From Holophagales bacterium (lineage in GTDB: Bacteria; Acidobacteriota; Thermoanaerobaculia; Multivoradales; Multivoraceae): a DNA stretch of 64,000 bases. Under the pieces are notes generated by a model. The model was not told the origin of the DNA, made no database searches, and saw only the letters and a list, made by a program, of their open reading frames with translations. Shown here piece after piece: positions 3,233 to 29,276 of this stretch. The stretch is from positions 14,065 to 78,064 of the forward strand of contig VXSP01000015.1 in assembly GCA_009837885.1 (NCBI GenBank), given 5' to 3'. How positions within the stretch are numbered: the stretch's first letter is position 1; each line of letters starts with the position of its first letter. The translations under genes and the position numbers were made by a program.

Positions 3233-5314
3233 TTATTCGACGGGGACGACCTCCACGCGATCGATGCCGAGTCGCCCCTCCTCGACGACCAAGCCGATGG
3301 CGCCGCAGTCGAGGGCGTCGTCGGTGGCTTCGACGAGCGTCGCGCCGTCAACCTTGCCGGCGAGGCGGTCGCCACGGGCCTCGAGGGTCAGTTCGTAGCT
3401 CTCGCCGAGTCGCCACTCGAGGTCCGCTTCGGCGAGCACCTCTTCGGTATGCAGCACCCGCACGAGCTGCACGCGGTTCCCGGGAGCCAGTAGCAGGCCG
3501 TAGAAACGGGTGAGGCCCTGGACCCTGGCTGCGACGCCGGCCCTCCGGACGAGGTGAGGCGTCACGGCGGCGGTCACGGAGTAGTCGCGCCACTCGCGGG
3601 TTCCCTGCATCAGCAGGCCCATGCCGGTGTTCTGGACCAGCCGGAACATCTCGATTCCCTTGGTCAGCAGGTCGACGCCGTTGACCCAGGCGCGGCGCCA
3701 CATCGTGCCGCGGTGGGTCGAACGCTCGAGTCGGAACTTCGGGGCGCCGGACCACTTCAGCGACTCGAGGAAGACGGGTCCGGCCGGGCCTTGAACGCGG
3801 ACGCCCGCGGAGAAGACGGGGCCGGGCAGGGCCGGACTCGTGAACGACACCCGGGCGCTCTCACCCGGCCCGAGTTCGATGGTGTCGTCGTCGAAGGTCG
3901 CCGTTTCGTCGTCCTCGCCGTAGTAGCCGAGATAGACGTTCGCCCGGGCGCCTTCCTCGCCGGCGCTGAGCGTCGCCTCGACGGTCTGGCCGGGGAAGAT
4001 CCGCGGCGAGGCCATCAACGGATAGACCCGGCCCTCGAACCACTTCGCGGTCTCCAGCGAGGGGATGAAGACGGGAGAACCGACCCGGGCTTCTTCCGAG
4101 GCGTCGATGCGCAGCGCGCGCTCGCCGGAATCCAGGGTGACGTTCCTGACCTCGGCCTCGCCGTCGGCGACCTGGAAACCCTGAACCGAGCCGGGGAAGG
4201 CGAAGTGGAACTGCGCGCCGTCCCTGGGCGCCAGCGCCTCCCTGCCGGCGAGTCGGCGCCCCATGTTGACGATCTGCAGCGCTTCATGGCCGCAGTCGCT
4301 GATCGCCCGGCCGCCATCGGCCGTCGGCAAGTAGATGCGGTCGGCCACCGGCCCGCGCCAGTCGAGGCCCTTCTCGAGTCCGGCCTCGATCCCGGCCAGA
4401 CCCCCCTTGATGCCCAGGAGGCAGCCGACGTTGCCCGAGTTGCAGTCGGTGTCCCAGCCGCAGGTGTTGACGATCTTCAGCGTCTCGGCGAAGTCGCTCT
4501 CGCCGTGCAGTAAGGCGAGGATGATCAGGCCGTGGTTGGGGACCATGTGGCAGTTGCCGCCGTACTTGTCGTAGCCGTAGCGCTCGGCCAGCCTTTCCCG
4601 GTTGGCGCGCCAGTCGCCGTTCGCGGCATGCCAGCGACGCAGGTCCCCGATCATCCGGGCGATCACCGAGTCCCGCGGGATGTAGCCGAGGGCGACGTCC
4701 AGGAGCGTGTCCGTGTCCTGATCGACGAACGCCATCGACTCCATCGCGGCCAGCACGCGCGCGCCGTAGACCGCTTCGCCGTCGTGGCTCACCCGCGCGG
4801 CGGCGGTGGCCAGGCGGACCGCCAGGTCCGGGTCGCCAGGAGCGACCATCGCCCAGCCGTCGATGAAGATCTGGGCGCCGATCTGCTCGGCCACCACCTT
4901 GCCGTTCAGCTCCATCGAGCCGCTCTCGGGCGCCTCGATCCCGCTCTTGAGACGCAGGTAGGCGGTGTGCTCGGTGGAGTTGCCGAGGCCGCCCCACCAC
5001 AGCACCGTGCGCTCCCGGATCAGGTAGTTGAGCCACGTCTCGCCGACTTCCCGCGAACTGAGATCGGCGCCGGAGCCGTGGTCCTCGAGCGCGCGCAGGA
5101 AGGTGAAGGTCCCCGTGATGTCGTCGTCGGTGACGATCAGGGGAACGTCGAGCCGGTCGTGGACGTAGTACTCGATGTCGCCCAGCCGTTTGCGGATCCA
5201 CTCGTAGGGCCAGCCCTCGAAGGGGCGGCCGAGGTAGACGCCGATGACCTTGCCGAGGACGCCGGCGTAGACGCGGTCCTTGTAGTCCTGGGGTAGTTGC
5301 ATGTCTTCGGCCAA
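3233..5314 (-). CDS. ADP-ribosylglycohydrolase family protein with a C-terminal DUF1080/LamG-like (3-keto-disaccharide hydrolase-like) domain
   Basis: 693 aa. The N-terminal ~330 aa match the ARH fold pattern (VLGKVIGVYLGRPFEG...; TDDDITGTF; GWDTDCNSGNVGCLLG). The C-terminal ~200 aa resemble a DUF1080 jelly-roll (TREWRDYSVTAAV...GRLGIDRVEVVPVE). Confidence 0.65.
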   Translation of the reverse strand: MAEDMQLPQDYKDRVYAGVLGKVIGVYLGRPFEGWPYEWIRKRLGDIEYYVHDRLDVPLIVTDDDITGTFTFLRALEDHGSGADLSSREVGETWLNYLIRERTVLWWGGLGNSTEHTAYLRLKSGIEAPESGSMELNGKVVAEQIGAQIFIDGWAMVAPGDPDLAVRLATAAARVSHDGEAVYGARVLAAMESMAFVDQDTDTLLDVALGYIPRDSVIARMIGDLRRWHAANGDWRANRERLAERYGYDKYGGNCHMVPNHGLIILALLHGESDFAETLKIVNTCGWDTDCNSGNVGCLLGIKGGLAGIEAGLEKGLDWRGPVADRIYLPTADGGRAISDCGHEALQIVNMGRRLAGREALAPRDGAQFHFAFPGSVQGFQVADGEAEVRNVTLDSGERALRIDASEEARVGSPVFIPSLETAKWFEGRVYPLMASPRIFPGQTVEATLSAGEEGARANVYLGYYGEDDETATFDDDTIELGPGESARVSFTSPALPGPVFSAGVRVQGPAGPVFLESLKWSGAPKFRLERSTHRGTMWRRAWVNGVDLLTKGIEMFRLVQNTGMGLLMQGTREWRDYSVTAAVTPHLVRRAGVAARVQGLTRFYGLLLAPGNRVQLVRVLHTEEVLAEADLEWRLGESYELTLEARGDRLAGKVDGATLVEATDDALDCGAIGLVVEEGRLGIDRVEVVPVE

Positions 5315-5489
5315 ATCTGAACCGCTACTTCAGCTCATCATGATGGATTGCGGTAGCAGTTCAGTTCATCAGGTTGGATCTGCGATGCTGGGCTACGACG
5401 TGAACCTTGAACGGTGTATCATGTTCAACGGATCAAGAGCTAGCTCGCCGGCACTCCGTCGCCGGCACCACAACGGAGGGAAAACCGCC
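5315..5489. promoter_or_regulatory. Divergent intergenic promoter region between the ARH-like gene (-) and the TonB receptor gene (+), with candidate operator palindromes
   Basis: A locally AT-richer 175-bp spacer. It contains the perfect palindrome CATCATGATG inside an imperfect inverted repeat (GAACCGCTAC...GTAGCAGTTC). The RBS GGAGGG lies 10 nt before the ATG at 5490. Confidence 0.3.
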
Positions 5490-8411
5490 ATGGAGAGCAG
5501 ACTTCGAGTCGTACCGAAGACCCTGAGAGTCTTCACCCTTTGGACCCTCGCCTTGTCGCTCCTGGCCTTGCCCGCGTTTGCCCAGGACGGCGCCGTTTCG
5601 GGGACCGTCTCCGACGCCGACGGCGACCCGCTTCCAGGCGTGACAGTCAGCGTCGAGGGCGGCGGGGACGCGATGACCGACGCGGACGGCGCCTTTTCGA
5701 TCTCGGGTGTCGCGGCCGGCAGCCACACCGTCACCGCCAGCCTTGAGGGCTTCCAGTCGTCGAGCCAATCCGTGCAGGTGACGGCCAGCGGCGCCACGGT
5801 GTCCTTCGAGATTCGCCCCGCCTACCACGCCACGGTCGTCGTCACGGCGGAGCGGGTCGAAGAGAACGTCATGGACGTGCCGATGACGATCTCGGCGTTC
5901 GACTCGAGCCTCCTCGAAGAGCTAGTGATCCAGGAGAGGACGGATCTGCAGAACCTGGTTCCTGGCCTTCAGTTCGGCGACGAGATCGAGCAGCAGGGCC
6001 AGGGAACGGTCATGCGGGGCATCGGCACCAGGAACGCCCAGTACGACCAGTCCGACTATGCCGTCGCGACCTACGTCGACGGCGCCTACACGCTGGGCGT
6101 TTACGGCACGACGCCCGGCGGCGGCTTCGATCTCGAACGGGTCGAGGTGGCCCGTGGCCCCCAGGGAACCCTGAACGGCCGCAACTCGATCGCGGGAGCG
6201 ATCAACGTGGTCACAAAGGGACCCACGGATCACTGGGATGCCGAGCTGATGGGGGAGGTCACCGACATCTCGCAGCAGCGCCTGAACGGGGCGCTCGGCG
6301 GCCCGCTCGGCGACGGTCCCTTCAGCTTCCGCCTGACAGCCGGCACCCACACGGGCGACGGCAGACAGGAGAACGTCGGGGCCGGCGGCGACCATGACGC
6401 GCCCGATCAGACCTTCTACTCGCCGCAGCTTCGCGCCGAGACCGATCGGTTCTCCGCGAGGGTGCGCGTGTCCAGCGTGGAGGATCGCGGGACGCCGCGG
6501 GGCTTCGTGCAGCTTTCGAACGTGGACCGGACGACTGGCGGCTACTCCCGGGACCGCTACTACCTCTGGGAGACGCCCAATCCGGCCCTCGATCCGAGCT
6601 GCGGCCTCAATCTCCCCGCCTGGAACTGCCCCGGGGAGATCCAGAACAGGGTGGCGTTCAACTACCCCGGAACCAACGAGAGCGAGAGCGATTTTGGCGT
6701 CCTCCGGGCCGACTGGCAGGTCTCGAGGGCTCTCGGCATCAGCTTCAACGCGAGCAGCGGCGAAACGGTGCAGCAGGCGCTCCGGGACGCCGACTACACG
6801 AATCGGGTGCCGATCGGCACGCCGCCGGGCGGTCACGGCCTGGGCGGCGACCCCAACTCGCTGGACCACACGCTGACGTCCTGCACGCCTGGGCGCTGGG
6901 ACGGCCTGTGTCCCGACGGAACGGTGCAGTTCTCGAACTCGTTCTACGACCTTCCGTTCGAGTACGAGGAAGACTCGCAGGAACTCCTGTTCAGGTCGAG
7001 CTACGCCGGTGACTTCAACTTCATCGGCGGGCTGTTCAGGTACAAGAACACGAGATCCGGGACGATTCACCGCCACGACCTGGATCCGGCCTTTCGCTTC
7101 GGGACGGCGGACGAGCAGGCCCGGAGGGCTTCGCCGATCTGGGGCTTTGTCGAGGTCGACAGTTGTCAGGACATCATGACCAAGATCGTCGAGGGATTCG
7201 GCTTCGGCACGACGGACCCGGCGGGCGACGAGGAGGGGCTCTACTGGTACTGCCCGGAGGGCGACGACCACGCCCATCTGCTCAGCTTCTTCAACGTCGG
7301 CAAGAACTGGACCGAGGCCGCGTTCTTCAGCGCCGACTACCGTTTCAACGACAAGTGGGCGCTCTCGGGCGGCATTCGCTACACGGAAGACGAGAAGGAG
7401 CAGAAGCCGGAGGACCAGGGTGGGTTCGCGGCTTTTGGGTTTGGAGGACCCGTGGTCGCGGTCGCTCTTGCCGGTGAGGGCAACCCGTTCCCTCAGACCT
7501 GGTCGCGGCCGATCGGCCACCTCGCTCTGGAGCGCACGACGGACGCCGGCCATCTGGTGTACGGCCGCATTTCCACGGGCTTCCGTTCCGGTGGCTTCAA
7601 CATCGGTCTGCCGGGCCAGGTGCCGCCGTACATCAAGGAAGAGACGCTGGTGAACTACGAACTCGGGGCGAAGGGCTTCTTCCTCGACTCGCGTCTCCAG
7701 CTTTCGGCCGGCCTCTGGTACAACCAGTTCGACAACTACCAACTCGCTGCCACGCAGGCGCCGCCGCCGGGCACGGACATTTCGATTTCGATCTACTCCC
7801 CGACGCCGCTCGTCGAGTACACGGCCAACATCCCCGACACGACGATTCAGGGCGTGGACGTCGAGTTCAGCTACCGGATCGGCTCCTTCGGGCTTCGGGG
7901 CTTCTATGCCTGGCAGGACTCGGAGATCGGTCCGCACGCCTCGGTGATCGACGGCCATCCCTATGGCCAGACGGCGATGTGGGACTACATTGACTTCGAG
8001 ACCGGCCAGCCGGCGACCAGCGAATACGATCTGCCGACGGATCAGTCCGGAAACCGGTTGCCGAAGCAGCCGGCCAACAAACTGGCGCTGACGGCGTCCT
8101 GGTTCAAGTCGCTCGCCTCCAACGGCCACCTCTCGTTCCAGTCGACCTACGCCCACACCGACCCTGCGTATCCCAGCATCGGCAACATCGACATCTGGGA
8201 GTTACCGGCATACGACCGGCTGGACGTGGGCGGTACGTGGAGCGCTCCAAGCGACCGCTGGTCGGTCTCGCTGTTCGTCAAGAACGTCATGGACGAGGTC
8301 GCGGTCCTCGAGTACCTGCCGATCTCCGGGAACGGGGCCGTCCCCGCGATCGGCTTCGTGACGCCTCCCCGCGAAGTCGGCGTGCAGCTTCGCTTCCGGC
8401 CGTTCAACTAG
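5490..8411 (+). CDS. TonB-dependent outer-membrane receptor (SusC/RagA-like, with an N-terminal CarboxypepD_reg domain)
   Basis: The start is at M64 of the tracked ORF, preceded by an RBS. It has a signal peptide (LALSLLALPAFAQ). The CarboxypepD_reg-like segment is GTVSDADGDPLPGVTVSVEG. Plug-region motifs are present (FDLERVEVARGPQGTLNGRNSIAGAINVV). The long beta-barrel ends in a terminal aromatic (QLRFRPFN). Confidence 0.85.
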   Translation: MESRLRVVPKTLRVFTLWTLALSLLALPAFAQDGAVSGTVSDADGDPLPGVTVSVEGGGDAMTDADGAFSISGVAAGSHTVTASLEGFQSSSQSVQVTASGATVSFEIRPAYHATVVVTAERVEENVMDVPMTISAFDSSLLEELVIQERTDLQNLVPGLQFGDEIEQQGQGTVMRGIGTRNAQYDQSDYAVATYVDGAYTLGVYGTTPGGGFDLERVEVARGPQGTLNGRNSIAGAINVVTKGPTDHWDAELMGEVTDISQQRLNGALGGPLGDGPFSFRLTAGTHTGDGRQENVGAGGDHDAPDQTFYSPQLRAETDRFSARVRVSSVEDRGTPRGFVQLSNVDRTTGGYSRDRYYLWETPNPALDPSCGLNLPAWNCPGEIQNRVAFNYPGTNESESDFGVLRADWQVSRALGISFNASSGETVQQALRDADYTNRVPIGTPPGGHGLGGDPNSLDHTLTSCTPGRWDGLCPDGTVQFSNSFYDLPFEYEEDSQELLFRSSYAGDFNFIGGLFRYKNTRSGTIHRHDLDPAFRFGTADEQARRASPIWGFVEVDSCQDIMTKIVEGFGFGTTDPAGDEEGLYWYCPEGDDHAHLLSFFNVGKNWTEAAFFSADYRFNDKWALSGGIRYTEDEKEQKPEDQGGFAAFGFGGPVVAVALAGEGNPFPQTWSRPIGHLALERTTDAGHLVYGRISTGFRSGGFNIGLPGQVPPYIKEETLVNYELGAKGFFLDSRLQLSAGLWYNQFDNYQLAATQAPPPGTDISISIYSPTPLVEYTANIPDTTIQGVDVEFSYRIGSFGLRGFYAWQDSEIGPHASVIDGHPYGQTAMWDYIDFETGQPATSEYDLPTDQSGNRLPKQPANKLALTASWFKSLASNGHLSFQSTYAHTDPAYPSIGNIDIWELPAYDRLDVGGTWSAPSDRWSVSLFVKNVMDEVAVLEYLPISGNGAVPAIGFVTPPREVGVQLRFRPFN

Positions 8412-21640: not shown

Positions 21641-22594
21641 ATGCGCAGCTTCCTCGCGCGCCGCCTGTTGCAGGCGGTGCCCGTTCTCCTCCTGGTCACG
21701 TTCCTGGTGTTCGCGCTGATGCTCGCGATTCCGGGCGACCCGGCGCGGGCGTTCATCGGGCCCGGCGAGGCGCTCGACGAAGAGCAGTTGCAGCTCATCC
21801 GCGAACGTCACCACCTGGACGAACCGGTGATCGTCCAGTACCTGATCTGGCTCGGCAACGTCCTCCAGGGCGACTTCGGCCGTTCGACCCAGAACATGCG
21901 CCCGGTGGCGGAGGAACTCGGCGGCCGGGCTCTGGTGACCCTGCAGTTCGGCCTCGCGGCCTGGATTCTCGCGGTGCTGGTCGGCGTGCCGGCCGGCATT
22001 GCATCGGCGGTCTATCGCGGCAAACCGATCGACTACGCGGCGACGGTGGTCTCGATCGGCGGGGTCGCCATCCCGAACTTCTGGCTCGGCATCATGGCGA
22101 TCCTGCTCTTCGGCGTGGGGCTCGGCTGGCTGCCGAGCCAGGGCTACGTGAGCCTCTTCGACGACCCGCTGCAGAGCCTGCGCCACATGGTCCTGCCGGC
22201 GTTCGCCCTCGGTGTCACGAGCTGCGCGCTGATCATGCGGCAGAGCCGCTCGGCCATGCTCGAGGTGCTTGCCCAGGACTACCTGCGTACCTCTCGTGCC
22301 CGGGGGTCGAGGGAGCGCACCGTGATCTGGTCGCATGCCCTGCGCAACGCGCTGCTGCCGGTCATCACGATTCTCGGCCTGCAGACGGGCCGCATCTTCG
22401 CCGGGGCGATCGTCATCGAGACGCTCTTCGGCATCCCCGGCACCGGCCAGTACATCGTGCAGGCGATCTTCGCCCGCGACTTCCTGGTCGTGCAGGCGGC
22501 GGTGCTGCTGATGGCGGTCGCCGTGCTCGCCGCGAATCTCGTCACCGACCTCGCCTGCGCCTGGCTCGACCCGAGGATCAAGTTCGGTGACTAG
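21641..22594 (+). CDS. ABC transporter permease (DppB/OppB-like)
   Basis: 317 aa, 6 TM. The N-terminus MRSFLARRLLQAVPVLLLVTFLVFALMLAIPGDP is typical, and the EAA-like loop is present (DYLRTSRARGSRERTVIW). Confidence 0.85.
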   Translation: MRSFLARRLLQAVPVLLLVTFLVFALMLAIPGDPARAFIGPGEALDEEQLQLIRERHHLDEPVIVQYLIWLGNVLQGDFGRSTQNMRPVAEELGGRALVTLQFGLAAWILAVLVGVPAGIASAVYRGKPIDYAATVVSIGGVAIPNFWLGIMAILLFGVGLGWLPSQGYVSLFDDPLQSLRHMVLPAFALGVTSCALIMRQSRSAMLEVLAQDYLRTSRARGSRERTVIWSHALRNALLPVITILGLQTGRIFAGAIVIETLFGIPGTGQYIVQAIFARDFLVVQAAVLLMAVAVLAANLVTDLACAWLDPRIKFGD

Positions 22595-23567
22595 GAATGT
22601 GCGCCGCAAGACCGGGTACGCCGCCGCCCCGGCCAACCGGGTGCTGTCGATTGGGTGCGCCGGCGTCCCCGCCGGCATCCGGCGCGAAGCGCCGGCCTCT
22701 GGAGGCGCTGCTCCGCCCAGCCACCCGACCCTCGAGCTGCTGCGCAAGCTCGCCTCTGTGCCCCAGGCGCTGGCCGGCCTCGTCGTGCTGGCGCTGATCG
22801 CCGCGGCGGCGGTGCTGGCGCCCTGGATCGTCCCCGTCGACGCCGAGGAGATGGACTTCGACAACCTGCTCTCGGGCCCGAGCGCCGCGCACTGGCTCGG
22901 CTCGGACCAGATGGGCCGCGACACGCTGGCCCGGCTGATCGTCGGCGCGCGGATCGCGCTGTCCGTCAGCCTTGGCGCCGTCGGCCTCGGCGTGTTGCTG
23001 GGAGTGCCTCTCGGCCTGCTGTCGGTCTACTTCCGCGGCCGCGTCGACGACGTGCTGATGCGGCTCATGGACGCGCTGGTCACGTTCCCCAGCCTGCTGA
23101 TCGCGGTCGGTCTGGCCGCCGCCCTCGGCGGCTCGCTCCGCACCGTGATCATCGCCATCGGCATCGCGAACGTGCCGTGGATGGCCAGGATCGTTCGCAG
23201 CCAGGGGCTCTCCATCCGCGAGCGGGACTTCGTCAAGGCCGCGGAGTCGCTCGGCCTCAGCCACCCGCGCATCATCCTGCGCCACATCCTGCCCAACTGC
23301 ATCGCCCCGGTCATCGTCCAGAGCACCCTCAGCATGGGCTACGCGGTGCTGACCGAAGCCGCCCTCGGCTTCGTCGGCGTCGGCATCCAGCCGCCCACGC
23401 CGACCTGGGGCAACATGCTCCAGCAGGCCTTCCCGATGCTCGAGCAGCAGCCGCTGCTTTCGATCGTCCCGGGCGTGGCGATCTTCCTGCTGGTGCTGTC
23501 GTTCAACTGCGTGGGGGACGCGCTGCGGGATCTGCTGGATCCGCGGCTGCGGGGGGTGATTCACTAA
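22587..23567 (+). CDS. ABC transporter permease (DppC/OppC-like); its 5' region contains a REP copy, so the true start may be the GTG near 22758
   Basis: 326 aa. A GTG start overlaps the dppB-like stop. The conserved core begins at ~LELLRKLASVPQALAGLVVLALIAAAAVLAPWIVPVD, and the EAA loop is FVKAAESLGLSHPRIILRHILPN. Residues 20-40 (GCAGVPAGIRREAPASGG) are encoded by a reverse-oriented REP. Confidence 0.8.
   Translation: MTRNVRRKTGYAAAPANRVLSIGCAGVPAGIRREAPASGGAAPPSHPTLELLRKLASVPQALAGLVVLALIAAAAVLAPWIVPVDAEEMDFDNLLSGPSAAHWLGSDQMGRDTLARLIVGARIALSVSLGAVGLGVLLGVPLGLLSVYFRGRVDDVLMRLMDALVTFPSLLIAVGLAAALGGSLRTVIIAIGIANVPWMARIVRSQGLSIRERDFVKAAESLGLSHPRIILRHILPNCIAPVIVQSTLSMGYAVLTEAALGFVGVGIQPPTPTWGNMLQQAFPMLEQQPLLSIVPGVAIFLLVLSFNCVGDALRDLLDPRLRGVIH
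22653..22706 (-). repeat. REP-like double-hairpin repeat (full-length copy, reverse orientation) inside the tracked dppC-like ORF
   Basis: The reverse complement reads GGCCGGCGCTTCGCGCCGGATGCCGGCGGGGACGCCGGCGCACCCAAT, with both stem-loops (CCGGCGC-TTC-GCGCCGG and TGCCGGCG-GGGA-CGCCGGCA). Confidence 0.8.
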
Positions 23568-23569
23568 CC

Positions 23570-23917
23570 ATGACCGAGACCGTGACGATTCCGAAGGCCG
23601 AGTATCAACGATTGTCTGCCGTCGAGGAAGATCACGCCGACATCCGGGCCGTGCTCGCCGTGCAGGCGAGAGTGGACGCCGGGACCGAGGAGCTCGTGCC
23701 CGCCGCGATGGTCAGCCGTCTGATCGATGGCGAGTCGCCGTTACGGGTCTGGCGCGAGTACCGTGGCCTCTCGCAGGCCGCTCTGGCCCGCACAGCTGAT
23801 ACGAGTCGTGTCCAGATCGTTGACATCGAAGCCGGTCGCCGAACTGGCTCCGTGCGCACGCTTCGCCGGCTCGCTGACGCCCTCGGTGTCGGCTTGGACG
23901 ACGTCGTTCCAGGCTAG
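23570..23917 (+). CDS. HTH-XRE family antitoxin-like protein (C-terminal helix-turn-helix), copy 1
   Basis: 115 aa. ESPLRVWREYRGLSQAALARTADTSRVQIVDIEAGRR is an XRE-type HTH. The start is 2 bp after the dppC-like stop. It is ~70% identical to 24934-25245. No toxin partner is recognisable. Confidence 0.65.
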   Translation: MTETVTIPKAEYQRLSAVEEDHADIRAVLAVQARVDAGTEELVPAAMVSRLIDGESPLRVWREYRGLSQAALARTADTSRVQIVDIEAGRRTGSVRTLRRLADALGVGLDDVVPG

Positions 23918-23981
23918 CTTCGGCGGCTCGCCGGTTCGTAGCGGTTTGTCGCCGTGTATTCTGAGCGAAGGAGGTAGTGGA

Positions 23982-24251
23982 GTGAGGGCCGAGAAGGTTG
24001 AACTTGGAATGCAGTACTTGGAGGAGGCTGTGATGGAGGTGCTTCTGGAGGCGGCGCAAGGCGACGAGTGCCTGGGTCCGGCTGAGGTCACTCTTCGCGC
24101 CGGCCTCTATCGGGGCACCTTTCTGAAGAACGCTATCGCTGCCGGCACGCTCAACAAGCTCCTGGAGGAAGGCCGTGTCGTCCGCTGCCTACAGGCAAAC
24201 GGAAGGGGGGGCTGGAAGGCAGCAGCGGTTGACCCGGACAGTCTCTCGTGA
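23982..24251 (+). CDS. Small hypothetical protein (about 89 aa)
   Basis: A GTG start sits 8 nt after a strong RBS (GAAGGAGG). Codon usage is coding-like. Sequence: ...MQYLEEAVMEVLLEAAQGDECLGPAEVTLRAGLYRGTFLKNAIAAGTLNKLLEEGRVVRCLQ... with no recognised domain. Confidence 0.35.
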   Translation: MRAEKVELGMQYLEEAVMEVLLEAAQGDECLGPAEVTLRAGLYRGTFLKNAIAAGTLNKLLEEGRVVRCLQANGRGGWKAAAVDPDSLS

Positions 24252-24365
24252 GTGCTTGATTCGAACCAAGCGACCACGCGAGCAGATGACACGGATAGGC
24301 GGCCGGAGAGCTCGACGGCGTGAACGCCTTGGCTGAGTGCTCCGGCGCACGCCTCGCCGCCTTCT

Positions 24366-24602
24366 TCAACCCCCGTACACAAAATCCGTTCCTAGCTCAC
24401 CGGCTATCCCTGCGGCGTGGAGTTCGACGAAGAAACGGACGGCGGAGCAGTGTCGGAGGGTTCGGGCGGCGGCTTCCGCGACTTCGCGGTCGCACGCGTA
24501 GTGCAGCTCGCCTTCGGCGGAAGTTTGGGCCTCCTCGAGGACGTGTTCGAGAGCGTGGAGCAGTTGGGGCGTGATGGAGGGACTGGCGATTGGTTTGCTC
24601 AT
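24366..24602 (-). CDS. Small hypothetical protein (78 aa), divergent from the RHH gene
   Basis: The minus-strand ORF shows GC3-rich codon usage. No recognisable motif. Weak call. Confidence 0.25.
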   Translation of the reverse strand: MSKPIASPSITPQLLHALEHVLEEAQTSAEGELHYACDREVAEAAARTLRHCSAVRFFVELHAAGIAGELGTDFVYGG

Positions 24603-24658
24603 TGGTGATCCTTCTGTTCGTGGTGGAGGCGGGAGGTGACGCTCATTAGGAGGTCGAA

Positions 24659-24868
24659 GTGGCGATTGTGATCAACGCGAAGCTGGACGAAGCCGTCTGG
24701 AACGAGCTTCGCGGCTTGGCGAGAGCGACGGGACGGGACGTTTCGGTAGTGCTCTCCGAAGCGGTTGAGGAGTACCTGGCGCGGCGCCGCGCGCGGCCCG
24801 ATGTGCGTCAGCATCTGGAGGGCTCTTTATCCGAGAACGAGGGATTGGGGAAGCTCCTCGCACGGTAG
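24659..24868 (+). CDS. Ribbon-helix-helix (CopG/ParD-like) small DNA-binding protein
   Basis: 69 aa. A GTG start sits 5 nt after the RBS AGGAGG. The N-terminal beta-strand IVINAKLDEAVWNEL followed by helices (GRDVSVVLSEAVEEYLARR) is RHH-like. Confidence 0.5.
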   Translation: MAIVINAKLDEAVWNELRGLARATGRDVSVVLSEAVEEYLARRRARPDVRQHLEGSLSENEGLGKLLAR

Positions 24869-24933
24869 CCCTGTCTGCGGCGCCCGTCGCGGGCCGCGAG
24901 TAGCCTGGACGGGGCAGCGACCCGCGTCTTCTG

Positions 24934-25245
24934 GTGAAGGCGCTCCGCAACGTGGCGGAGTTCGAGGAGGATCAGGCCGCGCTCGCCGTTCAGGCGCGAA
25001 TCGACGGCGGAATCGAGGAGTTCGTGCCCGGGACGGTCGTCAGCCGGCTAGTCGACGGCGAGTCTCCGCTGCGCGTCTGGCGCGAGTACCGTGGTCTCTC
25101 GCAGGCCGCCCTGGCTCGCGCCGCGAGCACGAGCCGTGCCCAGATCGTTGACATTGAGGCGGGGCGTCGAACCGTCAGCGCCCACACGCTCCGCCGGCTT
25201 GCTGGTGCTCTGGGTATAGAGCCGGACGACATCGTTTCGGGCTGA
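24934..25245 (+). CDS. HTH-XRE family antitoxin-like protein, copy 2 (paralog of 23570-23917)
   Basis: 103 aa. ESPLRVWREYRGLSQAALARAASTSRAQIVDIEAGRR is nearly identical in its HTH core to copy 1. Confidence 0.65.
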   Translation: MKALRNVAEFEEDQAALAVQARIDGGIEEFVPGTVVSRLVDGESPLRVWREYRGLSQAALARAASTSRAQIVDIEAGRRTVSAHTLRRLAGALGIEPDDIVSG

Positions 25246-25298
25246 CCGGGGCGAAGCGAACGACCGATGAAGCCGTTTCTCGAAACGAGAACGGAGAA

Positions 25299-26084
25299 AT
25301 GAGAATCGCGACCTGGTGCATTGGCGGGGTTCTCGGTCGTCTGGAGTTCCTCTGCCATTGGCTCGAACGGCGGCTGCCCGATGTCGTGGCTCTGCAGAAG
25401 ATCCGCGTTTCCGAGGAGAAGTTCCCGGCCGAAGCGCTGGCGGGTGTGGGCTACCGTTCCGAACCGCTTCGCAGGGAGTCGTGGTATGGCGTTGCGTTGC
25501 TGGCTCGGAACGATGGGCCGAAGCCCAAGATTCTGGACAGGGGGCTTCCGCCTGGCGACAGTCCAGACGACGATGGGTTCCTGACCGCTCGAATCGGTGA
25601 TCTCGTCGTTTCCTCCGTGTACGCGCCTTTCGGCGATCCCAAGAGGCGTGGAAGAGCAGGTGCTCTGGCGTACAAGGTCGCTTGGCTGGGTCGCCTGATC
25701 GCACACCTCAAAGAGCAACGGACTGGCCGGGATCGTTTGGTGCTGTGCGGCGACTTCAACGTGCTGCCCGATGTTCCGGCCAAGCGCGGCGTTCTGAACT
25801 GCACTTCGGACGAGAAGAAGCAGCTACAGGAGATCCTCGATACCGGGTTCGTTGACCTCTACAAGCCCGTCGGCCCACTTTCGGGCGCGGGTCTCAACTA
25901 TGGCTTCAACCCCAAGCTGGCACCGACGGCGAGGCTGCAGCTGGTGCTTGGCAGCAAGAGCATGGCGGATTCCGTGGCTTCCGCGTGGGTCGATCTGGAG
26001 TACCGGAGGCCGGTCGATGGGCTGCCGGGCCGGAAGTGGCCGGCCAGCGCTCCCTTGATCGTGGACTTGGCTGATCCGGCCTAG
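25299..26084 (+). CDS. Exonuclease III / EEP-family homolog with a degenerate active site (probable pseudo-nuclease)
   Basis: 261 aa, alignable to E. coli ExoIII: MRIATW..., WYGVALL and LCGDFNVLPD (the GDxN block) are conserved. The catalytic positions are substituted: N7 to C (TWCIGG), E34 to K (LQKIRV), D229 to Q (RLQLVL) and D258/H259 to A/S (WPASAPL). Confidence 0.75.
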   Translation: MRIATWCIGGVLGRLEFLCHWLERRLPDVVALQKIRVSEEKFPAEALAGVGYRSEPLRRESWYGVALLARNDGPKPKILDRGLPPGDSPDDDGFLTARIGDLVVSSVYAPFGDPKRRGRAGALAYKVAWLGRLIAHLKEQRTGRDRLVLCGDFNVLPDVPAKRGVLNCTSDEKKQLQEILDTGFVDLYKPVGPLSGAGLNYGFNPKLAPTARLQLVLGSKSMADSVASAWVDLEYRRPVDGLPGRKWPASAPLIVDLADPA

Positions 26085-26129
26085 CGGTGGTCAGCCGGCG
26101 TAGACCAGGGCGGGGGATGGAGGAACTCA

Positions 26130-26357
26130 CTACCTTTCATGAGCTTCCTCACGCGTCCAGGAACGCTCGGAACCGTAGCTTTCCTCGGCCCAGAGCGCGT
26201 CCAGCCGTGCGACCACGGCTTCGGAGTCGTCCGTGCGGGTGAGATCGTGGAGGTAGTCCCGCACGAGCTGGTTCAGGCTGGTTCCCCGCAGGGCGGCGAT
26301 CCGTCGGGCCTCGGCGACTATCCGGTCGTCGAGGGACAGTGTGACGTCCATGAGCAC
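26130..26357 (-). CDS. VapB/FitA-like ribbon-helix-helix antitoxin (solitary)
   Basis: 75 aa: MDVTLSLDDRIVAEARRIAALRGTSLNQLVRDYL is the classic RHH antitoxin N-terminus. Downstream on its strand is the convergent EEP-like gene, so it has no toxin. Confidence 0.5.
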   Translation of the reverse strand: MLMDVTLSLDDRIVAEARRIAALRGTSLNQLVRDYLHDLTRTDDSEAVVARLDALWAEESYGSERSWTREEAHER

Positions 26358-26396
26358 AGGCTAGGTATGGACGGGGTCCGCGTCAACTGAAAGAGC

Positions 26397-26430
26397 CAGA
26401 GCCGGCGGGGACGCCGGCGCACCCAGTCTG
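26397..26430 (+). repeat. REP-like repeat, partial copy (right stem-loop only)
   Basis: AGCCGGCGGGGACGCCGGCGCACCCAGTCTG, lying between the sulfatase stop and the RHH gene start. Confidence 0.75.
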
Positions 26431-26458
26431 GACAGTCGAGGTTCTCCGGCGGAGATTC

Positions 26459-27832
26459 CTAGCTGTCACGCCCCGAAGGCAGCACCCGGCCCTCTGGGTA
26501 GTCGGCGCCGGTGACGCTCTTGTCGACGGACCGGTTCCAGGCATCCAGCTCCGCCCGCATGCGGGCGGCGAGTTCGGGCTGCTGCTCGATCAGGTTGTCC
26601 TCTTCCCCGGGATCGTCGATCACGTTGTAGAGCTCGAAGGGATCGGTCGGGTCGGAGAAGTAGTTCCGCACCAGTTTGACCTGGTTGTCCAGCCAGGCGA
26701 GACCGCCGCTGGCGCGGAAGCCGATGGGCTGCTCCCGGCGGGCGGGCTCGGACTCGAACACGCGGACAATGGAGATGCCGTCGTGGACCTCGTTGATCGA
26801 CGACGGGTCGAGCCCGGCGACCTCGATCAGGGTCGGGAAGATGTCCATCGTGCTGGCGGGGAAACTCGTGATCCTCGGGGCGATGCCGCCTGGCCATTCG
26901 ATGATCGTCGGCACGCGCAGGCCGCCCTCGTAGAAGTCCTTCTTGAAGCCGCGCAGGTGGCCGGTGGTGTCGGGGCGGACGCCGGGATGCTCGGGGCCGT
27001 AGGAGATGTCGGGCAGGCCGCCGTTGTCGCTGGTGAACCAGACCAGGGTGTTGTCGGCGATTCCGAGTTCACGCAGGCCCTCGCGGAGAGCGCCGATGGA
27101 GCGGTCCATCGCGACGATCTCGGCGTGGTGCGTCCTGGAGGCATCGTCCAGCGCCGTGAAGGGCTGCTCGTCTTCCGGCAGGGCGGCGAACGGCCGGTGC
27201 GGTGAGGCGTACCAGATCACCGCGAACACCGGCTTCCCGCTCTCCCGCTGCTCCGAGATGTAGCGCAGCGCTTCGGCGACCAGGATCTCCGACGAATCGC
27301 CCTCGAACTGCTTCGGCACTCCGTTCTGACTGAAGACGGGGTCCAGGTTGAACTGGTTCGTGTGGCTCAGCCAGTAGCCGAAGCCGAGTTCGCCGGGATT
27401 GTGGGGGTCGTCCGCGGGCATCGGATTGTCGCCGCTTGGATGGACCTGGTTCAGGTGCCACTTGCCGAAGTGGGCCGTGGCGTATCCAGCCTGCCGGAAT
27501 GCCGTGGCGAGCGACTTCTCCTGTTTGTTGATCGAGTCGCCGACGCGGAAGGCCCCTGTGCGATCGTTAGTGCGCCCGGTCAACACCGTCGCCCGGGTCG
27601 GGGTGCAGCTCGGCGCGCCGGCGTAGAACCGGTCCATGCGGAGGCCAGCGCCGGCCATCGCGTCGAGGTGGGGCGTCTGGAGCAGTGGATGGCCGTAGTA
27701 GCCGGTCTGCGCCCAGCCCATGTCGTCGGCCATGAGGAGGACGACGTTGGGCGGATCGTTCTCGGCTGCGGGCTGGCAGGCGAGAACCGCGAAGAGCGGC
27801 AGGGGGAGGAATCGGGGAAGAGACTTCAGCAT
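26459..27832 (-). CDS. Sulfatase (formylglycine-dependent arylsulfatase family), secreted
   Basis: 457 aa. Signal peptide. The sulfatase signature is SCTPTRATVLTGR (C-x-P-x-R), with NVVLLMADDMGW as the metal-binding start and GKWHL. Confidence 0.9.
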   Translation of the reverse strand: MLKSLPRFLPLPLFAVLACQPAAENDPPNVVLLMADDMGWAQTGYYGHPLLQTPHLDAMAGAGLRMDRFYAGAPSCTPTRATVLTGRTNDRTGAFRVGDSINKQEKSLATAFRQAGYATAHFGKWHLNQVHPSGDNPMPADDPHNPGELGFGYWLSHTNQFNLDPVFSQNGVPKQFEGDSSEILVAEALRYISEQRESGKPVFAVIWYASPHRPFAALPEDEQPFTALDDASRTHHAEIVAMDRSIGALREGLRELGIADNTLVWFTSDNGGLPDISYGPEHPGVRPDTTGHLRGFKKDFYEGGLRVPTIIEWPGGIAPRITSFPASTMDIFPTLIEVAGLDPSSINEVHDGISIVRVFESEPARREQPIGFRASGGLAWLDNQVKLVRNYFSDPTDPFELYNVIDDPGEEDNLIEQQPELAARMRAELDAWNRSVDKSVTGADYPEGRVLPSGRDS

Positions 27833-28608: not shown

Positions 28609-28986
28609 TCAGAAGGCGATCCGCCGGACACCGTCGACGGCGTCGAAGTGGGTGTCGTTGCTCAGCACCGGCAGGGCGTGCTGGCGGCAGAGAGCGGCGA
28701 TCCATGCGTCGTTCGATGGGATGGGCGTGCCGGTCCGTTTCAGCTTCAGTCTGATCTCGGCGTAGACCTCGGCCGTTCCTGAGGTTACGGTGGCTACTTC
28801 GGCGAGGGGCAGGTGACGGCGGAGCCAGCCTTCGTAGCGCCGTCGGTGCCGCGACTGACGGATGCCGAAGTAGTACTCGCCGAGGACGATACTCGGTACG
28901 ACCAGCCGCCGCGCCGAACGGAGAGGTGCTTCCACCGGCGCGAACCCCTCCGCCCACGCCGACAGCGCGTTCGTGTCGAGAATCAC
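28609..28986 (-). CDS. vapC: VapC PIN-domain toxin
   Basis: A GTG start overlaps the vapB stop by 4 bp (GTGA). ILDTNALSAW...SNDTHF carries the PIN acidic residues. Confidence 0.75.
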   Translation of the reverse strand: MILDTNALSAWAEGFAPVEAPLRSARRLVVPSIVLGEYYFGIRQSRHRRRYEGWLRRHLPLAEVATVTSGTAEVYAEIRLKLKRTGTPIPSNDAWIAALCRQHALPVLSNDTHFDAVDGVRRIAF

Positions 28987-29276
28987 GGAGCGTCGCCGGG
29001 GTCGAGCTTCTCGAACTCCTCCTCGATCGCCTGGAGGACGTTCCGGTGCTCGTCGCGGAGGTCGGCAAGTTCTCCGAATCCCTCCATCCAGGGAGGCTCC
29101 GGCGGTACGGGTGCGATCCCGTGGGGGTCGGCATTGGCTCGCGTACCGGCAGCATGTCGGCCGAGGTGCAGTTCGACGGCGTCCGTGAAGAACCGCTTCA
29201 GCGTCATTCCGCGGCCAGCGGCAAGGGCCTTCGCGCGGCGGAACGTGGTATCGGGCAGTTCGATGGTAGTCTTCAT
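28983..29276 (-). CDS. vapB: VapB antitoxin
   Basis: 97 aa: MKTTIELPDTTFRRAKALAAGRGMTLKRFFTDAVELHL. It sits immediately upstream of vapC and overlaps it. Confidence 0.75.
   Translation of the reverse strand: MKTTIELPDTTFRRAKALAAGRGMTLKRFFTDAVELHLGRHAAGTRANADPHGIAPVPPEPPWMEGFGELADLRDEHRNVLQAIEEEFEKLDPGDAP

Follow-up and report, generated by a model that had tools for sequence, protein, structure and literature searches.

A 64-kb stretch of DNA from an apparently sponge-associated Holophagales bacterium (contig VXSP01000015.1), referred to here as the window, carries an island of seven small genes, A to G, at 23568–26400, between a dppC-like permease gene and a repetitive extragenic palindromic (REP)-like element followed by a sulfatase gene. 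One of them, F, encodes a relative of exonuclease III (ExoIII, or Xth) and is a member of a conserved, undescribed ExoIII-derived subfamily with a remodelled active site. The favoured explanation of the locus is a composite one, to which a probability of about 0.55 is given: the island would be a recombination hotspot, and F, a solitary remodelled ExoIII paralog lodged in it, would not be a nuclease. The initial annotation had considered that the seven genes might form one toxin–antitoxin (TA) or defence module, with F as a pseudo-nuclease effector or decoy; this is not supported, in view of the shuffled contents of the same gap in related genomes and the unrelated neighbours of distant F homologs. 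The window matches the Holophagales metagenome-assembled genome (MAG) GCA_009842435.1 (contig VYFK01000071), and F is 100% identical to 'hypothetical protein F4210_04275'. Comparisons were made with fetched related loci (named L001–L093) that carry either the F family or canonical xth relatives.

A remodelled branch of the Xth family

The assignment of F to the EEP superfamily is supported by both profile and structure comparisons. The protein exceeds the cut-off of PF03372 (Exo_endo_phos, 24.5 bits) with a score of 41.4 and just passes TIGR00633 xth (99.5 against a cut-off of 99.05), while it falls short of TIGR00195 (88.3 against 182.55) and PRK11756 (61.8 against 280). The AlphaFold2 model, built with 61 homologs, has a predicted local distance difference test score (pLDDT) of 89.2 and a predicted template modelling score (pTM) of 0.90, and Foldseek aligns it with 50 EEP nucleases at template modelling (TM) scores of 0.77–0.84, the best matches being NExo, A. 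fulgidus Exo, Mth212, ExoIII and APE1 (0.82–0.84 for NExo and ExoIII). The closest Protein Data Bank entries are 2jc4 and 6fk4 (E ~1e-19, 27% identity, TM 0.82–0.84). F is a single-domain protein of 261 aa without a signal peptide, and it shares the four-layer EEP fold and the length of the ExoIII/Xth enzymes (XthA, NExo, NApe, A. fulgidus Exo, Mth212 and APE1).

The active site differs from that of these enzymes. Five catalytic residues of ExoIII are exchanged in F (N7 for C7, E34 for K34, D229 for Q214, D258 for A249 and H259 for S250), whereas Y109 (Y108 in F) and D151/N153 (D152/N154, in a G-D152-F-N154 block) are kept. Only motifs iii (Tyr) and iv (Asp-x-Asn) of the six Xth motifs are therefore present in F, with i, ii, v and vi replaced, although the Arg-Leu ahead of motif v is retained. 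The initial annotation had read the same residues and named a mistaken register as the error that would undo the reading; no such error was found, since E. coli XthA, human APE1 and 12 canonical Xth sequences, aligned with MAFFT, all give the same register as the HMMER alignment to Neisseria NExo (2jc4). For XthA and APE1 the references were entered by hand, and 11 canonical sequences from the fetched loci agree with them at the catalytic columns. The canonical Xth controls from these loci all read N-E-Y-D-N-D-D-H.

The substitutions are not peculiar to the window, which settles whether they are conserved or unique: they are common to every relative down to ~40% identity. More than 100 clusters at 90% identity carry the remodelled pattern. 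Among the 120 homologs listed in a search of 5.8 billion proteins, all 101 full-length sequences (44–100% identity) have K34, the Tyr and the Asp-x-Asn, together with Gln or His at position 229 and a small residue at 259, and none has E34/D229/H259. Among 80 genome loci, every one at ≥40% identity reads xK-Y-D-N-(Q/H)-x-(S/A/G), and almost all of those at ≤35% identity read NEYDNDDH, the exceptions being L065 and L067, which carry K34. When 1.84 billion representatives clustered at 50% identity were searched exhaustively with HMMER, roughly 35–40 of the best 150 clusters combined K34, Tyr and DxN without E34 or the D-H pair. Compared with Xth, the family thus replaces N by C/S/P/A/M, E by K, D by Q/H and DH by x-S/A/G. 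K34 is invariant across the subfamily, while position 7 is variable (C/S/P/A/M/D/T); position 229 is mostly His among K34 clusters and Gln throughout the Holophagales clade, including the window, and positions 258/259 are small and variable. Members are labelled 'hypothetical' or 'EEP family protein' in databases, and neither a description of the subfamily nor a precedent for Lys in place of Mg2+ in an ExoIII protein was found in the literature searched.

The changes extend to the positions that in APE1 contact the apurinic/apyrimidinic (AP) site and DNA. In F, N174 is replaced by Phe, the pocket aromatic residue by Asn, the inserting residue by Asn and R156 by Gly, and the canonical contact set is not present. 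Across the subfamily the corresponding exchanges are N174 to Y/F/W, F266/W to N, M270/R to N/D, R177 to P and R181 to A; N174 of APE1 has been reported as essential for catalysis (PMC12557600). Two DNA-facing loops are shorter than in canonical Xth, and the median pI of the subfamily is 8.9, against 5.9 for canonical Xth. Because the AP-site contacts of APE1 and ExoIII are replaced as well, the earlier idea of F as an AP-site-binding decoy is weakened.

A precedent for an EEP fold kept for binding is provided by EEPD1, a metazoan EEP-fold pseudo-nuclease that binds DNA without cutting it (PMC12988330). Both EEPD1 and F are conserved EEP domains with an incomplete catalytic set. However, their losses are opposite: EEPD1 keeps the metal-binding motifs and has lost the Asn of DxN, and it carries N-terminal (HhH)2 domains (PMC12988330), whereas F keeps DxN, lacks the metal and His motifs and has neither (HhH)2 domains nor any sign of forming a dimer. 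The features that define EEPD1 are therefore not those of F, and the two lineages are unrelated, one being metazoan and the other bacterial and Xth-derived.

The F open reading frame (ORF) is intact, at ~260 aa, in dozens of lineages. Pairwise Nei–Gojobori comparison with eight orthologs gives ratios of non-synonymous to synonymous substitution (dN/dS) of 0.19–0.44, similar to or somewhat above those of the flanking sulfatase gene (0.16–0.22). The constraint that had been suspected for a degenerate EEP gene in the initial annotation is thereby borne out, and it extends to the whole subfamily. Truncated or interrupted family copies do occur (L018, L023, L026, L038 and L049), among them one broken by a ~1.8-kb insertion (L026, 6001–8626) and one cut after ~128 codons (L018, 6001–6384), which indicates that the gene is dispensable in some genomes. 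These broken copies, the truncated and chimeric gene E of the island and a frameshifted G in L005 could be taken as signs of a functionless graveyard in which F is no more than a pseudogenised xthA. Such plain decay is scarcely credible: the same substitutions are found in every full-length member aligned, at 40–100% identity, the homologs span 40–87% identity and are not assembly duplicates of one sequence, the predicted model of F is confident and well folded, and not only F but also A, D, E and G are under purifying selection (dN/dS 0.10–0.35 for the latter four). The substitutions in F thus do not appear to be decay, and the random pseudogenisation that had been named as a possible refutation is at odds with a conserved pattern in an intact ORF.

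The known carriers of the family are MAGs of Acidobacteriota (Holophagales/'Candidatus Multivorans'/Thermoanaerobaculia, Bryobacterales and Vicinamibacteria), Gammaproteobacteria, Gemmatimonadota and 'Candidatus Spongiisocius', many of which appear from their isolate names to be sponge-microbiome bins. A search of 72,556 sequenced plasmids (PLSDB) detected only canonical xth, at ≤33% identity, and no member of the family; none was detected in IMG/VR viral contigs either. Xth is a housekeeping repair gene, whereas the F family resides in accessory, variable regions.

Two loci hold a second EEP gene. In L025, from a 'Candidatus Multivorans' genome with two family copies, an EEP gene for 261 aa at 5219–6004 (+) overlaps the downstream copy at 6001–6774 (+) by 4 nt and appears by eye to keep the canonical Asn/Glu/DxN/Asp-His, the Pfam match supporting EEP membership only; if this reading is right, L025 would be a tandem of an active and a remodelled EEP gene. 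In L092, a second EEP gene lies 1.6 kb from the family gene.

A probable chromosomal hotspot with orphan regulators

The features of the island and its borders are listed in Table 1. All seven genes of the initial annotation are present, between the borders that it had described, and its domain calls hold, with A and E as paralogous XRE-type helix-turn-helix (HTH) proteins, D and G as ribbon-helix-helix (RHH) types (the profiles being weak for both) and F as the ExoIII homolog.

Table 1. Genes and elements of the island at 23568–26400 and of its borders (GC3, GC content at third codon positions)
Feature	Position	Strand	Profile matches and remarks
dppC/oppC-like ABC permease, core gene	22587..23567	+	OppC_N and BPD_transp_1; GC3 0.94
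A, XRE-type HTH, 115 aa	23570..23917	+	HTH_31 45.5 bits, HTH_3 42.4 bits; E ~1e-11
B, small protein, 89 aa	23982..24251	+	no significant family
C, near-orphan small protein, 78 aa	24366..24602	-	no family
D, ribbon-helix-helix, RelB/CopG-like, 69 aa	24659..24868	+	RHH_1 20.8 bits
E, XRE-type HTH, 103 aa, paralog of A	24934..25245	+	HTH_31 47.5 bits, HTH_3; E ~1e-12
F, ExoIII/EEP-fold protein, 261 aa	25299..26084	+	Exo_endo_phos 41.4 bits; TIGR00633 99.5 bits
G, DUF6364/RHH (VapB-like), 75 aa, convergent with F	26130..26357	-	DUF6364 32 bits; weak RHH/VapB matches
REP-like GC-rich palindromic element, 25 nt, right border of the island	26401..26425		9 copies in the window
Exported sulfatase, core gene	26459..27832	-	Sulfatase (Pfam); GC3 0.90

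The comparison with relatives by blastn reveals a mosaic, in which the flanks are 84–95% identical and the island pieces 73–87%, with sharp breaks at 23565/23568 and 26387/26401. The left border is formed by the permease gene, whose stop codon lies 2 nt before the start of A; its identity to relatives is 90–95% at the nucleotide level through 23565, and similarity is lost beyond. Within the island, the less similar pieces comprise A (23568–23938), D (24670–24868), E with F (24912–26084) and G (26096–26387). On the sulfatase side, 84–95% identity resumes from 26401 at the earliest. In five of 11 related loci (L005, L012, L013, L014 and L020) the island similarity stops at 26386/26387, and in four of these five the higher-identity similarity restarts at 26401; elsewhere the flank alignment restarts at 26421–26469. 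GC3 is 0.70–0.80 in the island genes (0.75 in F) and 0.89–0.94 in the flanks.

The same gap is filled by differing sets of small genes in L004, L005, L007, L012–L014 and L016–L020, including Dcm with Vsr, HigB/HigA-like pairs, HicB-like genes and insertion sequence (IS) elements. For instance, L004 holds a Dcm-type methylase, Vsr, a chimeric XRE gene, F and G, and L007 a methylase, Vsr, XRE, F, a HicB-like gene, an RHH gene and IS110, while an A-type XRE, F, a HicB-like and an RHH gene are found in L013. L005 and L006 combine a gene for a 229-aa protein without known family with F, a frameshifted G, Gp49/HigB-like and HI1420/HigA-like genes and a D-type RHH gene. These sequence comparisons identify 23568–26400 as what appears to be a recombination/integration hotspot and not one module. 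F alleles are more diverged than the adjacent sulfatase gene (dS 0.68–0.87 and 73–77% aa identity, against dS 0.23–0.35 and 88–92%, in L005, L012, L013 and L014), which suggests allele exchange or faster evolution within the hotspot.

The small genes other than B and C resemble the antitoxins of type II TA systems (XRE/HipB-Y4mF-like, HigA/HI1420, RelB/CopG RHH, VapB/DUF6364 and HicB) in size, fold and family, and complete TA pairs are found at the equivalent site in relatives (Gp49/HigB with HI1420 in L005, L006 and L012; BrnT with BrnA in L022). Unlike in type II TA loci, however, no toxin gene lies next to A, D, E or G in the window, in agreement with the initial annotation. No recognized toxin gene was found in 23570–26360, and B, C and F have no match to a toxin family in Pfam, NCBIfam, PADLOC or PHROGs; in the gaps between the genes, where six-frame translations were inspected without applying the profile libraries, nothing toxin-like was seen. 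At E≤0.1, PADLOC-DB v2 leaves B, C, D, F and G unmatched, and A and E hit only generic HTH models, including 'Control_protein' models at 34–37 bits. Inheritance as a pair, which is typical of type II TA systems, is not observed either, as A, D and G occur at differing positions with differing neighbours and the XRE–F arrangement is confined to part of one clade.

The paralogs A and E are 69% identical and are joined by a 269-nt direct repeat at 78% identity. A consists of a ~55-aa N-terminal extension followed by a C-terminal HTH and matches a Y4mF/HipB-type NCBIfam model below its cut-off. Its orthologs (80–87% aa identity) occur in L012, L013, L016, L018, L019 and L026, in the first two directly upstream of the EEP gene, and its dN/dS is 0.10–0.16. 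E, which was called by NCBI and omitted by the ENA gene caller, sits 53 nt upstream of F and is a chimera, truncated at its 5' end, in which the N-terminus of an HI1420/HigA-type antidote is joined to an A-type XRE domain. Its 162-aa ortholog in L004 has residues 1–45 that are 80% identical to the HI1420-type N-terminus, fused to the A-type domain; the window copy, read in frame upstream as ...TAG-PGRGS-DPRLL-VKALRNVAE, keeps only '...DPRLL-VKALRNVAE' of it behind an in-frame TAG. The dN/dS of E is 0.24–0.35.

D matches a RelB-like NCBIfam model at 25 bits, below the cut-off, and has copies at 63–72% aa identity in 10 related loci, at other positions. In relatives it follows the EEP gene, behind a HicB-like or HigA-like gene, whereas it is an orphan in the window; its C-terminal tail is also seen fused to other proteins (dn_L020), and its dN/dS is 0.23–0.35. 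Orthologs of G (81–87% identity) are found in L004, L012 and L020, its dN/dS is 0.17–0.28, and no PIN partner adjoins it. The notion of an addiction-module graveyard raised in the initial annotation is therefore only partly upheld: the genes have been recombined and E is a truncated chimera, but A, D, E and G appear to be orphan regulators maintained by purifying selection rather than rotting, because each has a dN/dS within 0.10–0.35. Chromosomal orphan antitoxins may serve as stand-alone repressors or anti-addiction factors, and by analogy A, D, E and G probably act in this way.

B and C appear to be lineage-restricted small genes. Neither has a counterpart at the related loci, where 23940–24660 is unmatched by blastn. 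B has AAGGAGG 7 nt ahead of its GTG start, and its sole profile match, to AbiEi_4, is non-significant (E=0.058); it is possibly a winged helix. A search of 5.8 billion proteins gave three clusters related to B, with identities of 98%, 80% and 65%, and one homolog was found alone in an unrelated, uninformative context. C has no match in Pfam, NCBIfam, PADLOC or PHROG, and only two homologous clusters, at 100% and 91% identity, among the same proteins.

The REP-like element (GCCGGCGGGGACGCCGGCGCACCCA) is present in nine copies per 64 kb at ≤1 mismatch, against none in 100 shuffles; the 25-nt copies start at 1548, 22652, 26401, 27872, 33691, 35288, 38402, 44802 and 59552. The longest dppC ORF begins at 22587 and contains, near its 5' end, the copy at 22652–22676, so that dppC itself probably starts further downstream; one gene caller gives a 290-aa version. 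No promoter or terminator came up when the island was scanned for them. Some 2.3 kb beyond its right border, at ~28609–29276 (-) (9311–9978 of L001), there is an apparently complete PIN gene (VapC-like, 125 aa) with an overlapping 97-aa upstream partner; the NCBI copy (L003) calls the PIN gene as 227 aa.

The neighbourhood of F

A conserved XRE–RHH–EEP neighbourhood, which the initial annotation had proposed to look for, is not seen, as no universal partner emerges from ~36 loci. The Pfam tally of 127 flanking genes at these non-redundant loci (HTH_3 14, HI1420 5, DUF6364 4, BrnA 3, RHH_1 3, and PIN, Vsr, HIT and a second EEP 2 each) contains no universal family, and beyond the Holophagales clade the loci examined share no conserved partner. 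The neighbours of distant members include HIT and BrnA (L008), UPF0175 and T5orf172 (L009), Uma2 (L010), PIN/Phd (L091) and Fic (L093).

Within the clade, a same-strand XRE gene lies directly 5' of F in the window and in L004, L007, L012, L013 and L014, with a 4-nt overlap in L004, L012 and L013, and F is followed in the same direction by a HicB-like and an RHH gene in L007, L013, L014 and L015. Such arrangements, the occurrence of the family in regions of low GC3 rich in TA and restriction–modification (R-M) genes, and the divergence of F alleles beyond that of the flanks would be consistent with a toxin-like or defence effector held in check by the upstream XRE protein (E) and/or by the downstream HicB-like and RHH proteins. 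This role is nevertheless unlikely. F has no PADLOC, toxin Pfam or NCBIfam match, and the canonical nuclease residues that could cause toxicity are gone. Where the XRE gene and F overlap by 4 nt, the XRE frame runs past its stop into a spacer that is not conserved. The regions upstream of F belong to three or more unrelated types of sequence, whereas the F start (ATGAGGxTCGC) does not vary, which indicates that the conserved unit is F itself. Outside the one clade no XRE gene is found, and partners differ or are absent. Moreover, F is broken or truncated in L018, L026 and L049 while the neighbouring regulators stay, contrary to what addiction would predict. Control of F transcription by the XRE protein (E in the window) in the Holophagales lineage is plausible. 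The sequence between E and F contains a 6+2+6 palindrome (CGTTTC-TC-GAAACG), which was rejected as a conserved operator or hairpin as it occurs in the window only.

F was also rejected as the toxin of a downstream BrnA. BrnA directly follows F in L008, and L022 retains both BrnT and BrnA at the same place, so the adjacency can result from the loss of BrnT rather than from partnership. In L004, L007 and L014, the E-type XRE gene stands between a Dcm-type methylase/Vsr pair and F, which resembles an R-M cassette with a C protein; unlike such cassettes, the island of the window has no methylase, Vsr or other R-M genes. F is not a conventional restriction enzyme of a Dcm and Vsr cassette, because the methylase is absent from the window and from L005, L012, L013 and L020.

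A further possibility is that F is cargo of mobile elements, a nuclease-dead DNA binder with an anti-defence or DNA-protecting role, for example by shielding incoming DNA ends or lesions. The context in L092 (2579–10807) would fit: the family gene is placed between two ArdC-like (ArdcN+MPTase-PolyVal) genes, and a RepB primase, an ankyrin-repeat protein and a T2SSE-type ATPase are encoded nearby, a gene content that suggests a conjugative or integrative element. The spread across phyla within one habitat, the basic pI and EEPD1 as a eukaryotic pseudo-nuclease that retains DNA binding (PMC12988330) are likewise in keeping with the idea. Mobile cargo is, however, a very unlikely explanation, as L092 is the one such context, plasmids and viral contigs yielded no member, and genomes of the Holophagales clade carry the gene on the chromosome in a syntenic position.

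Other adjacencies were noted. A HIT-family (HIT/CwfJ_C_1/DcpS_C) gene ends 5–15 nt before the family gene in L008, L022 (5484–5996) and L023 (37–423), in MAGs labelled Gammaproteobacteria or 'Candidatus Rariloculaceae', which hints at a role tied to nucleotides or DNA ends. In Bryobacterales (L027, L034, L035, L036, L039 and L048), a sulfatase gene adjoins the family gene upstream, on the same strand and at ~200–270 nt, and in L040 it is downstream. The orientation is unlike that in the window, and these adjacencies could be due to chance. Three independent contexts are too few to judge a functional link between F and the sulfatase; orientation and spacing differ among them, and the sulfatase is an exported protein, whereas F lacks a signal peptide. 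In L044 (1074–1523) and L047 (6686–7210), a gene for a conserved 149–174-aa protein without Pfam match directly adjoins or overlaps the family gene at its 3' end; both family members are distant (~41–43% identity to F).

Binding or catalysis

Under the favoured composite explanation, Lys34 would fill the former Mg2+ site beside D152, N154 and Y108, and the predicted pocket would still bind phosphate. F, a basic protein (pI ~9), would then be a non-nuclease binder of nucleic acid or of a phosphorylated ligand, or at most a slow metal-independent esterase. As a solitary accessory gene it would travel between lineages and land in variable regions rich in TA and R-M genes; A, D, E and G would be remnants of TA modules that were repeatedly gained, recombined and lost at the site.

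Several points weigh against this explanation. The presumed loss of Mg2+-dependent AP-endonuclease/exonuclease chemistry is deduced from residue identities only. The D-x-N and Tyr, which initiate hydrolysis in EEP enzymes (PMC12988330), are intact in F, and His occupies position 229 in many subclades; an altered but real catalytic site is possible in the subfamily. An XRE gene of A or E type is immediately upstream of F in 7 of ~13 Holophagales-clade loci, which would fit a toxin-like role, and where F is followed by the HicB-like and RHH genes, the gap is 9 nt and the next ends abut or overlap. In addition, gene calls at the loci are crude (GC3-filtered ORFs), and sponge MAGs and a few lineages dominate the neighbourhood sample.

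The retained residues could even mean that F is an active metal-independent phosphoesterase, in which Lys34 replaces Mg2+ and the pocket has been rebuilt for a new substrate. D152, N154 and Y108, with His229 in most clades, would perform the chemistry on a modified nucleic-acid end, a nucleotide or a non-nucleic phosphoester. The invariance of motifs iii and iv and of K34, the purifying selection on F, the HIT-family gene (nucleotide hydrolase/transferase) abutting it in three loci, and the fact that the exchanges at the contact positions are conserved and not random (N174 to Y/F/W, the pocket aromatic to N, R177 to P and R181 to A) all favour such an enzyme. On the other hand, the whole Holophagales clade has Gln at position 229, the residues at 258/259 are small and vary, the literature searched yielded no ExoIII precedent for Lys in place of Mg2+, and no metabolic neighbourhood is conserved. 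A new enzyme of this kind is thus considered unlikely, although less so than the other alternatives. Covalent AP-site chemistry through Cys7, of the HMCES/YedK type, was rejected, as position 7 is C/S/P/A/M/D/T in the family.

More speculatively, and with still lower expectation, the ExoIII scaffold, its Mg2+ ligand exchanged for an invariant Lys and its pocket rebuilt, may have been repurposed as a new kind of nucleic-acid-directed effector that spreads horizontally among sponge symbionts and is switched by XRE proteins. As part of their defence or anti-defence repertoire, this effector could either sense lesions or ends or, as a metal-independent enzyme, process them. The present data contain no evidence for a new system.

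The composite explanation, with F as a remodelled paralog in a hotspot, has implications for both the protein family and its carriers. ExoIII and APE1 are among the best-studied DNA-repair folds, and their six catalytic motifs are treated as family-defining. Here, a coherent bacterial Xth-derived subfamily is delimited, whose members belong almost exclusively to uncultured bacteria of several phyla, most of them apparently associated with sponges. As F just passes TIGR00633, automated calls of such proteins as exodeoxyribonuclease III are possible and would misstate the repair capacity of the symbionts. The locus also offers a clean example of a chromosomal hotspot in which antitoxin-type genes outlive their toxins under purifying selection. 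An answer to whether F binds or cuts, and what its target is, would test how far the EEP active site can be rewired.

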